A stretch of DNA of 64,000 bases from positions 1 to 64,000 of the forward strand of contig CAZZIO010000018.1 in the NCBI GenBank assembly GCA_964654465.1, given 5' to 3'. The position numbers were made by a program, and so were the translations under genes. Source of the DNA: an uncultured Dictyoglomota bacterium (GTDB lineage: Bacteria > Dictyoglomota > Dictyoglomia > Dictyoglomales > Dictyoglomaceae). Each line of letters begins with the position of its first letter. Positions within the stretch are counted from its first letter, which is position 1. Below the pieces are notes generated by a model. It had not been told where the DNA came from. It made no database searches and saw only the letters and a program-made list of their open reading frames with translations. Shown piece by piece: positions 1,267-1,467 of this stretch.

Positions 1267-1467
1267 TGCGACAGCTCAGCCTCGCTTACGCTCGTTTTTG
1301 CTCTCGCAACTTTTTTAAATCTTTTCCCACCCTCCACCCTAATTTCAAATGCTTCGTTTCACTCCGCATTTCAAATTCTGCTCGCTTTGCTCGCAGTGTT
1401 TTTTCTCTCGCTCATGCTCGCCCTTGACCCTCGCTTTTGCTCGGACTATCCGCTCGCATAAGCTCGC
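1267..1467 (-). repeat. Cluster of GC-rich imperfect hairpins, including five CTCGC-N3/4-GCTCG units
   Basis: Units at 1281-1294, 1381-1393, 1407-1420, 1430-1443 and 1453-1466, plus stems 1267-1308 and 1341-1377. Confidence 0.85.

Follow-up and report, generated by a model that had tools for sequence, protein, structure and literature searches.

Why does a compact array of short hairpin units stand beside a Xer-like integrase gene in a bacterium from hot springs, and does it act as DNA, as RNA or not at all? The units, of the form CTCGC-N3/4-GCTCG, occur close to the left end of the window (the whole 64-kb stretch of DNA analysed here), in a 32% G+C hot-spring metagenome-assembled genome (MAG) of the Dictyoglomus family (G000) that is 99.97% complete and whose contig begins at window base 1. 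They had been put forward as a strand-specific folded signal of single-stranded DNA or, alternatively, as a structured RNA belonging to a mobile element.

Anatomy of the module

A pattern scan of the 64-kb window returned six matches: five on the + strand (starts at 1281, 1381, 1407, 1430 and 1453) that together span 1281-1466, and an inverted sixth on the - strand at 2166-2179. The five clustered units named in the original prediction are present, and the pattern occurred in none of 100 shuffles (mean 0.00, maximum 0). The whole 1,911,136-base assembly held the same six matches and no others, with 0 matches for a reversed-pattern control. As had been anticipated, the motif is not scattered through the chromosome; it occupies a single locus, inside a mobile island.

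Each unit is a direct repeat of GCTCGC, a near-palindromic hexamer that reads GCGAGC on the purine-rich (bottom) strand, where two hexamers pair as G-C, C-G, G.A, A.G, G-C, C-G. Across the copies of the module described below, loops on that strand are GTAA, GAA or AAA, and several pairs are G.U on that strand only. The units belong to a non-coding module of ~240 nt (1267-1498). Its elements, in order, are one hairpin, a first C-rich box, a 12-bp hairpin whose mismatch is conserved, four hairpins made by the units and another C-rich box. The two boxes, 21 nt each at 1319-1339 and 1478-1498, frame the unit array.

The distal end of the module is unit A (1267-1317, + strand), an imperfect hairpin in which GCGACAGC is paired with GCTCTCGC over 1267-1308 with one C.C on the top strand; it encloses u1 (1281-1294) and is followed by AAC and T6. 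C-box 1 (1319-1339, + strand) reads ATCT-N-TTCCCACCC-N-CC-N-CCC, and its bottom strand forms a G-rich box (G-box) with a predicted two-tetrad G-quadruplex. The main hairpin, H (1341-1377), has 12-nt arms, a 13-nt loop and one conserved mismatch, C.C on the top strand and G.G on the bottom. Two longer stems with one such mismatch each had been described at 1267-1308 and 1341-1377, and both are as claimed; the accompanying GAA mini-hairpin does lie inside the 13-nt loop of H, although its stem of merely 2 bp makes it the weakest part of that claim. Next comes u2 (1378-1404), which reads CTGCTCGC-TTT-GCTCGCAG, then TG and T6. Units u3, u4 and u5 (1407-1420, 1430-1443 and 1453-1466, within segment 1405-1468) are hexamer pairs with a spacing of 23 bp. 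C-box 2 (1478-1498, + strand), which is direct and not inverted relative to C-box 1, forms the sharp integrase-proximal edge of the module. The direct hexamer repeats, the two framing C-boxes and a shortened inverted copy of the stem at 2158-2186 are features that go beyond the earlier description of this DNA.

To the left of the module are a 294-aa ORF without a family match and a GC-rich four-way fold at 1181-1236. To its right, a cargo segment of 734 bp (1499-2232, + strand) carries an antitoxin candidate (Phd-like, 71 aa; 1547-1762, + strand) and a Doc/Fic toxin (1759-2154, + strand; Pfam PF02661, 2.8e-14; TIGR01550, 70.2 bits), with two hairpins downstream. A putative extended -10 lies within the segment at about 1513-1521, and C-box 2 overlaps the -35 region of the putative toxin-antitoxin (TA) promoter. 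The inverted short copy of unit A (2158-2186, + strand) begins 4 nt past the doc stop codon. Its G.A orientation is on the top strand, which places the purine-rich version on the doc sense strand, and its RNA fold is -18.7 kcal/mol (z -4.9, 0 of 200 shuffles as good). A hairpin with a T-run at 2196-2236 on the - strand, with a modelled RNA fold of -23.1 kcal/mol (z -9.0), is likely the intrinsic terminator of the integrase gene. That gene (2234-3130, - strand) encodes a Xer-like tyrosine recombinase of 298 aa (PF00589, 8.4e-43), for which XerA, XerD and XerC were the best NCBIfam rows, all under their cut-offs. An Rfam search over 1-8000 with E up to 1 matched a tRNA fragment alone.

Islands that carry the module

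Other genomes of the Dictyoglomus family, and hot-spring contigs as well, have module homologues downstream of a Xer-like integrase gene. A search of 11 Dictyoglomota genomes placed the C-box at five places in three genomes; four of the five are downstream of an integrase gene of this type, and the fifth is the syntenic site of genome G002, which holds a mini form of the module on a contig that ends ~530 bp beyond. Close homologues of the integrase (at least 59% identity) occupy six places in 4 of the 11 genomes, and the box lies downstream at three of the four places with downstream DNA, the exception being a truncated copy in G001. One integrase family accompanies the module across the Dictyoglomus family, in keeping with the co-location that had been suggested, and we take the module to be a standing component of a group of tRNA-Val-targeting islands with a Xer-like integrase in this family.

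Scanning metagenomes with the integrase gave 12 loci, one of them the window's own sequence and one with almost no downstream DNA. Two loci, L173 and L176, have no cargo, the integrase being followed by a 125-nt spacer and then the module; in L174 and L178 an MNT and HepT cassette precedes the module. Only a homologue of the inverted unit A was found in L175, past the integrase terminator, and neither the module nor inverted unit A occurred in L177 and L179-L182 within the 1.5-6 kb examined.

In genome G006, which represents a different genus, one copy of the module (G006:C1) lies between an integrase with a type I restriction-modification (R-M) system and a YgjP fragment on one side and a GH108 lysin/holin-like operon on the other. 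The surrounding island measures 14.4 kb, and at its two ends the 3' part of tRNA-Val forms a 54-bp direct repeat, these attachment (att) repeats lying ~7 kb from the intact module. Beyond the module the island carries holin/lysin, replisome organiser, DnaC-like, cI/Cro-like and IrrE-like genes, with no capsid genes among the ORFs scanned. A further copy, G006:C4, follows a decayed integrase, with the G-box 9 nt after it. The module was also considered as the attachment site of the island and rejected: its sole similarity to tRNA-Val is a 13/14 match with E = 3.1, and the G006 island has its own att repeats elsewhere.

The component hairpins vary among copies. At the unit A position, L173, L176 and G002 have a Watson-Crick hairpin with a GTAA loop on the G-rich strand, followed by a top-strand T7. 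The arms of H co-vary among the window, L173/L176 and G006, and its G.G mismatch and 13-nt loop are kept in all five aligned copies. Within u2 of L173 a C-G pair has become A-T with the tandem mismatch kept, and G006 has a fully Watson-Crick hairpin and T6 at the u2 position. A hairpin with T6/T7 on the top strand is conserved at both of these positions, even with replaced hairpin sequence; judged by eye, these hairpins are fully paired in L173, L176, G002 and G006. L173 also has a CAGC-GAA-GCTG hairpin in place of u4, and the right half of u3 is missing in both L173 and L176. The mini form (L178, G002) corresponds to the full form minus everything that separates its two direct G-boxes.

The slot bounded by the integrase stop codon and the G-box varies in content: Phd/Doc in the window, and MNT/HepT, type I R-M or nothing elsewhere. 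Each locus has a single cargo unit, and on the integrase side of the MNT/HepT cargo no separate hairpin site is present. The first G of the G-box is precisely where similarity between copies sets in, and this is so in at least six different left contexts. The same edge was seen when contigs of four hot-spring runs from four studies were compared with window 1-3400. In three of the four runs, 1498 was joined directly to 2233, one base past the integrase stop, with the 734-bp Doc segment skipped. The joined contig had a depth of 106, 89 and 85 in the three runs and the TA-bearing contig a depth of ~48; a unitig over 1311-1491 reached 147, 119 and 117, roughly the joined and TA-bearing forms summed.

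Strand asymmetry and a proposed role

The two strands had been predicted to fold unequally, and this holds with RNA parameters. For 1262-1505 at 37 C, the bottom strand folds at -64.7 kcal/mol (z -2.6, 1 of 200 shuffles as good) versus -37.6 kcal/mol for the top strand (z -1.7, 8 of 200 as good), and the asymmetry continues at 60 C (-28.9 versus -11.8) and 75 C (-11.0 versus -3.1). The z-scores for the whole module are modest. With DNA parameters at 37 C the bottom strand gave -27.0 (z -1.49) and the top strand -19.6 (z -1.46), neither differing from shuffles; DNA-parameter folds at 75 C came out stabler than at 60 C and were set aside as a parameter artefact. Nearest-neighbour models, which give little credit to sheared G.A stacks, rate the individual units as weak (-0.3 to -2.5 kcal/mol for DNA, -1.3 to -6.3 for RNA). 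By NMR, CGAG blocks of G:C and sheared G:A pairs form stable DNA hairpins (PMC10085684). The bottom strand resembles these at sequence level, repeating CGAG in the C-GA-G context that forms such pairs in that work, and L173 has a GCGAAGC-type mini-hairpin at u4 akin to the GCGNAGC mini-hairpins; however, the known examples come from in-vitro work on a human promoter and on synthetic DNA, with no bacterial function attached.

A two-tetrad G-quadruplex was predicted at both boxes on the bottom strand at 37 C and none at 75 C (ViennaRNA with the G-quadruplex option), one of the four G-runs of the box having only two G. The consensus fold of the five aligned copies keeps u2, u4, H and unit A, with double changes in 9 of 50 predicted pairs. 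The RNAalifold covariation term of +2.36 gives no net support over these five sequences, which include two near-identical pairs, and because of this overall term the covariation evidence is anecdotal.

The orientation of the module is fixed. Its G-rich strand is the integrase-sense strand in 7 of 7 distinct integrase-linked copies. Judged by GC skew, this strand coincides with the G-rich replication strand in the window and with the C-rich one in G006:C1, and the polarity therefore follows transcription, not replication. Since it is tied to the integrase coding strand, a structured RNA, the second alternative of the original prediction, fits better than a DNA replication signal.

We therefore propose, tentatively and with a probability of roughly four in ten, that the cluster is part of a REP/BIME-like mosaic with two uses, as a structured 3' flank (either a terminator or an insulator) and as a cargo hotspot's fixed border. 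The module lies at the junction of the integrase/cargo operon and a convergent operon, its purine-rich, hairpin-prone strand being the integrase-sense one, and it would act by way of nucleic-acid structure, not as an array of protein sites or a replication signal. In integrase-sense transcripts, the G-box, a U-tract and hairpins of the G.A/GNRA type may give the RNA a heat-stable 3' end, by which it would be terminated or protected; the T5-T7 run of the bottom strand is preceded by the G-box alone. On the opposite strand, unit A with its T-run and u2 with its T-run could stop transcription arriving from the convergent operon. A simple consensus scan for intrinsic terminators returned 0 sites in 1100-2350. 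The module stands directly at the end of integrase-sense operons in L174, L178, both G006 copies and the joined form, while in the window and L173/L176 a separate strong terminator lies between integrase and module, so that integrase transcripts may never reach it there. As for the slot, the G-box edge would be the fixed far border for varied addiction and defence genes, and the conserved module and integrase gene may supply homology, or a fragile structure, for swapping the cargo between them. A terminator role leaves unexplained the cross-phylum identity of the 21-nt box, described below, and the sharp edge of the module.

REP/BIME elements are RAYT-associated mosaics of enterobacteria and pseudomonads to which roles as terminators and mRNA stabilisers have been ascribed. 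The module is likewise a mosaic of short imperfect GC-rich palindromes between convergent genes. It differs in that its six units and both C-boxes are at one locus in G000, not in hundreds of copies, in a genome without a Y1/RAYT gene, and in that its units are direct near-palindromic hexamer repeats with tandem G.A pairs, tied to an integrase island. A multi-copy character is found in the C-box family of three Dehalococcoidia MAGs (see below), not in G000. The TM_ECO/PIT/Box C repeats (Holder et al. 2015, PMC4666352), which are conserved intergenic repeats of C-runs and G-runs, are similar as conserved structure-prone repeats at a variable locus; that study describes them as having no strand bias and no associated mobile gene, with locally higher genome variability. 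Their consensus places a C-arm and then two G-arms on one strand (PMC4666352). The top strand of the window has C-runs only and the bottom strand G-runs only, and thus an intrastrand triplex cannot form.

Alternative readings and the C-box family

The C-box pattern has 18 fixed bases in 21 nt, with ~17 chance matches expected in 596 Gb. A scan of that size found it in at least 128 stretches of genome contigs; among the matches listed, most were in Dehalococcoidia, with others in Cloacimonadota, Deltaproteobacteria, Saprospiraceae, Selenomonadaceae, Peptococcaceae, Nitrospirae, Planctomycetota and one CPR MAG. When one mismatch was allowed, whole genomes held 30, 76 and 36 copies in three Dehalococcoidia MAGs, 6 in a Cloacimonadota MAG and 5 in a Selenomonadaceae MAG, with 0 in controls. 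The family is intergenic, without bias in the orientation of neighbouring genes, and 76 boxes gave no replication-strand bias (44 negative versus 31 positive local GC skews, p = 0.2). No transposase recurs among 1126 ORFs neighbouring boxes, where the recurrent neighbours are ordinary housekeeping families, and an integrase stands beside the C-boxes of other phyla at only 1 of 79 loci. In those phyla a hairpin often follows the box. In Dehalococcoidia an inverted G-box lies 100-280 nt away, and of the 12 C-box/G-box pairs found in other phyla, 8 have a spacing of 121-281 nt. The C-box also occurs in 41 viral contigs, many of them T4-like (UvsW/UvsY), and in the T4-like contigs it lies in a divergent intergenic region beside a homing-endonuclease-like ORF. 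Hexamers of the GCGAGC type are not enriched near the C-boxes of other phyla, and therefore the box alone ties the module to this dispersed family. No Rfam family covers the C-box in 9 loci of other phyla, and we found no published description of either the C-box family or the module.

Such dispersal raises the question of whether the module has any role. It could consist of passenger repeats, that is, REP/MITE-like selfish units and C-boxes that accreted in a tolerant spacer and were inherited with the island. The high copy numbers, the intergenic location without gene-orientation bias, the pairs 121-281 nt apart, which resemble inverted ends, and the difference between mini and full modules, which amounts to the stretch between direct G-boxes, are all in favour of this. 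We nevertheless think it unlikely. The 11 Dictyoglomota genomes have the box at five places only, all in this island type or at the syntenic site, so it has not spread there; moreover, order, orientation to the integrase and hairpins are kept across genera. The lack of a transposase recurring beside the boxes and of a Y1 transposase in G000 also stands against it, and the direct arrangement of the window boxes differs from that of MITEs.

More doubtful is the idea that a phage satellite or a defective prophage uses the module as its packaging (cos/pac) site, with H, given its symmetric arms and constant 13-nt centre (5 of 5 aligned copies), as the cut site. The G006 layout of integrase, R-M cargo, module, holin/lysin and replication and regulator-like genes, with no capsid in the scanned ORFs, is what makes it attractive. 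P4-like satellites and P2-like phages have cos-adjacent defence hotspots (Rousset et al. 2022, PMC9122126), and the P4-like hotspot, as that paper describes it, lies between psu and int and adjoins cos. Like the present locus, the hotspots described there (PMC9122126) have variable cargo between an integrase and a conserved non-coding site by late genes, with a sharp boundary. However, the island and its host are unrelated to P4, and the border motif of the module is dispersed in ordinary intergenic DNA of other phyla. G000 contains no second copy for a helper phage to share. Viral contigs matched a 14-mer of the module 72 times, and 0 of these matches were counted as real: 69 were without at least four GCGAG words and without GGGTGGG nearby, and the remaining three were in G+C-rich sequence with the module layout absent. 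Contig data, for their part, cannot reveal molecule ends.

We give similarly little credence to the G-box/hairpin module as a structure-directed recombination site, in the form of a folded strand or a quadruplex-prone duplex, at which the Xer-like island takes up and exchanges cassettes of defence and addiction genes. Were it so, the islands would represent a cassette platform distinct from integrons, and the shared C-box would be the sign of non-coding DNA, recombinogenic or mobile, that forms a class across phyla and has a trans-acting partner. Integrons are the nearest comparison, with a tyrosine recombinase beside a slot for exchangeable TA-type cassettes and imperfect hairpins with a preferred strand. 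In contrast to integrons, the cargo lies at the 3' end of the recombinase gene, there is not one hairpin site per cassette, and the recombinase fails the integron-integrase models (TIGR02249, 131.9 bits against a cut-off of 265; NF011946, 93.2 against 435). Identity with an integron was rejected on the TIGR02249 score, the single cargo per locus and the lack of a per-cassette hairpin.

It is very unlikely, in our view, that the cluster is a strand-specific single-stranded DNA signal, whether an origin or priming site or a folded recombinase substrate comparable to integron attC or the CTX phage, although tandem G.A pairs, G-runs, G.T wobbles and GTAA/GAA loops do occur together on the bottom strand, a Xer-like recombinase is encoded next to the cluster and the cargo joins exactly at the module edge. 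The origin or priming role first proposed for the locus found no support, with no Rep or relaxase among the island ORFs scanned, no Y1 transposase gene in G000 (PF01797, 0 matches; control positive in 6 of 14 reference genomes) and the G-rich strand on opposite replication strands in the window and G006. Rolling-circle origins and conjugative ssi sites likewise differ from the module, which has no Rep or relaxase in these ORFs and no fixed orientation to replication. Nor did a circular or back-joined form, of the kind that might have been expected, occur in the contigs of the four hot-spring runs over 1-3400. Also against this reading stand the integron-integrase score under its cut-off, DNA-parameter folds no different from shuffles and, in G006, att sites that are tRNA repeats ~7 kb from the intact module.

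Least probable is a duplex array of protein sites (iterons, a partition site, or an operator at which an antitoxin or island regulator reads GCTCGC on one helix face), since, despite hexamers 9-10 bp apart within pairs and 23-26 bp between pairs in the window, eight hexamers at 10-12 bp in G006 and the overlap of C-box 2 with the putative -35, the module is present without a TA operon in L173, L176 and G006, unrelated hairpins replace hexamers in L173 and G006, hexamer number and spacing are not conserved, and 3 of 8 hexamer sequences are altered in L173 while the hairpins mostly persist.

The module as a structured 3' flank and cargo border thus remains our preferred, if tentative, reading. 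Its 21-nt box is common to high-copy intergenic repeats of distant phyla and to phage contigs, and its reader must be widespread. In the islands themselves, the integrase stop codon and the G-box, as flanking landmarks, make the cargo slots of these deep-branching thermophiles findable, together with defence and addiction genes that are otherwise hard to delimit. As a natural system, the module also suits the question of whether tandem G.A hairpins and G-quadruplexes act at 70-80 C as heat-stable insulators or RNA 3'-end structures.

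The tRNA-Val fragment beside the integrase

Immediately upstream of the start codon of the Xer-like integrase (window 2234-3130, minus strand) lies a 5' fragment of a tRNA-Val(CAC) gene, which is directed away from the integrase and comprises, at 3192-3293, 47 nt of the tRNA together with approximately 55 nt of promoter sequence. The segment enclosing it (3130-3392) carries 36-nt inverted repeats at 3141-3176 and 3317-3352, as well as a direct repeat of 16 bp (3130-3145 and 3377-3392). An intact tRNA-Val(CAC) gene with the same promoter as the fragment was located on contig C32. 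In two other Dictyoglomota genomes, G006 and G001, an intact tRNA-Val gene precedes the integrase and both face the same way, whereas in the window the tRNA is a fragment and points the opposite way.

The 294-aa ORF and its surroundings

A GC-rich, four-way (cloverleaf-like) fold at 1181-1236 comes directly after the point where translation of the 294-aa ORF stops. Both strands were folded as RNA, with predicted energies of -22.7 kcal/mol (z -2.5) for the plus strand and -28.7 kcal/mol (z -2.6) for the minus strand, and neither an Rfam nor a tRNA match was obtained for this stretch. In the complete genome G003 (C1:808000-820000, positions 7600-8900 of this stretch), the homologue of the ORF is split into pieces, and its orientation with respect to the core genes is the reverse of that in the window. 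After it come two tRNA genes represented by their 3' ends, with anticodons read by eye as Glu-CTC and Gln-CTG. Both integrase and module are absent from this site. The same two tRNAs precede a decayed integrase on contig C4 of G006.

The C-box family and a cargo-module fusion

The 21-nt C-box of the module forms the head of a family of repeats dispersed through intergenic DNA and represented in genome contigs, viral contigs and metagenome-assembled genomes. Individual Dehalococcoidia MAGs contain as many as 76 copies of it and, among the matches listed, it is also present in Cloacimonadota and several further phyla, as well as in contigs of T4-like phages. Searches for a matching Rfam family, a linked transposase and a published description of the family found none. 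In Dehalococcoidia, the C-box is often partnered by an inverted G-box with four G3 runs. Many Dehalococcoidia intergenic regions (L054, L055, L069, L098 and others) also contain, near C-boxes, hairpins of the form GTCATT...AATC and C-arm/G-arm/G-arm motifs, the latter resembling the intrastrand-triplex (TM/PIT) type given in PMC4666352.

At the metagenome locus L174, which combines an integrase, MNT/HepT cargo and a module, the HepT toxin ORF (1414-1776) extends into the G-box and terminates at the TAG within the AATAG of the box. The cargo is thus fused to the module, with no spacer between them.
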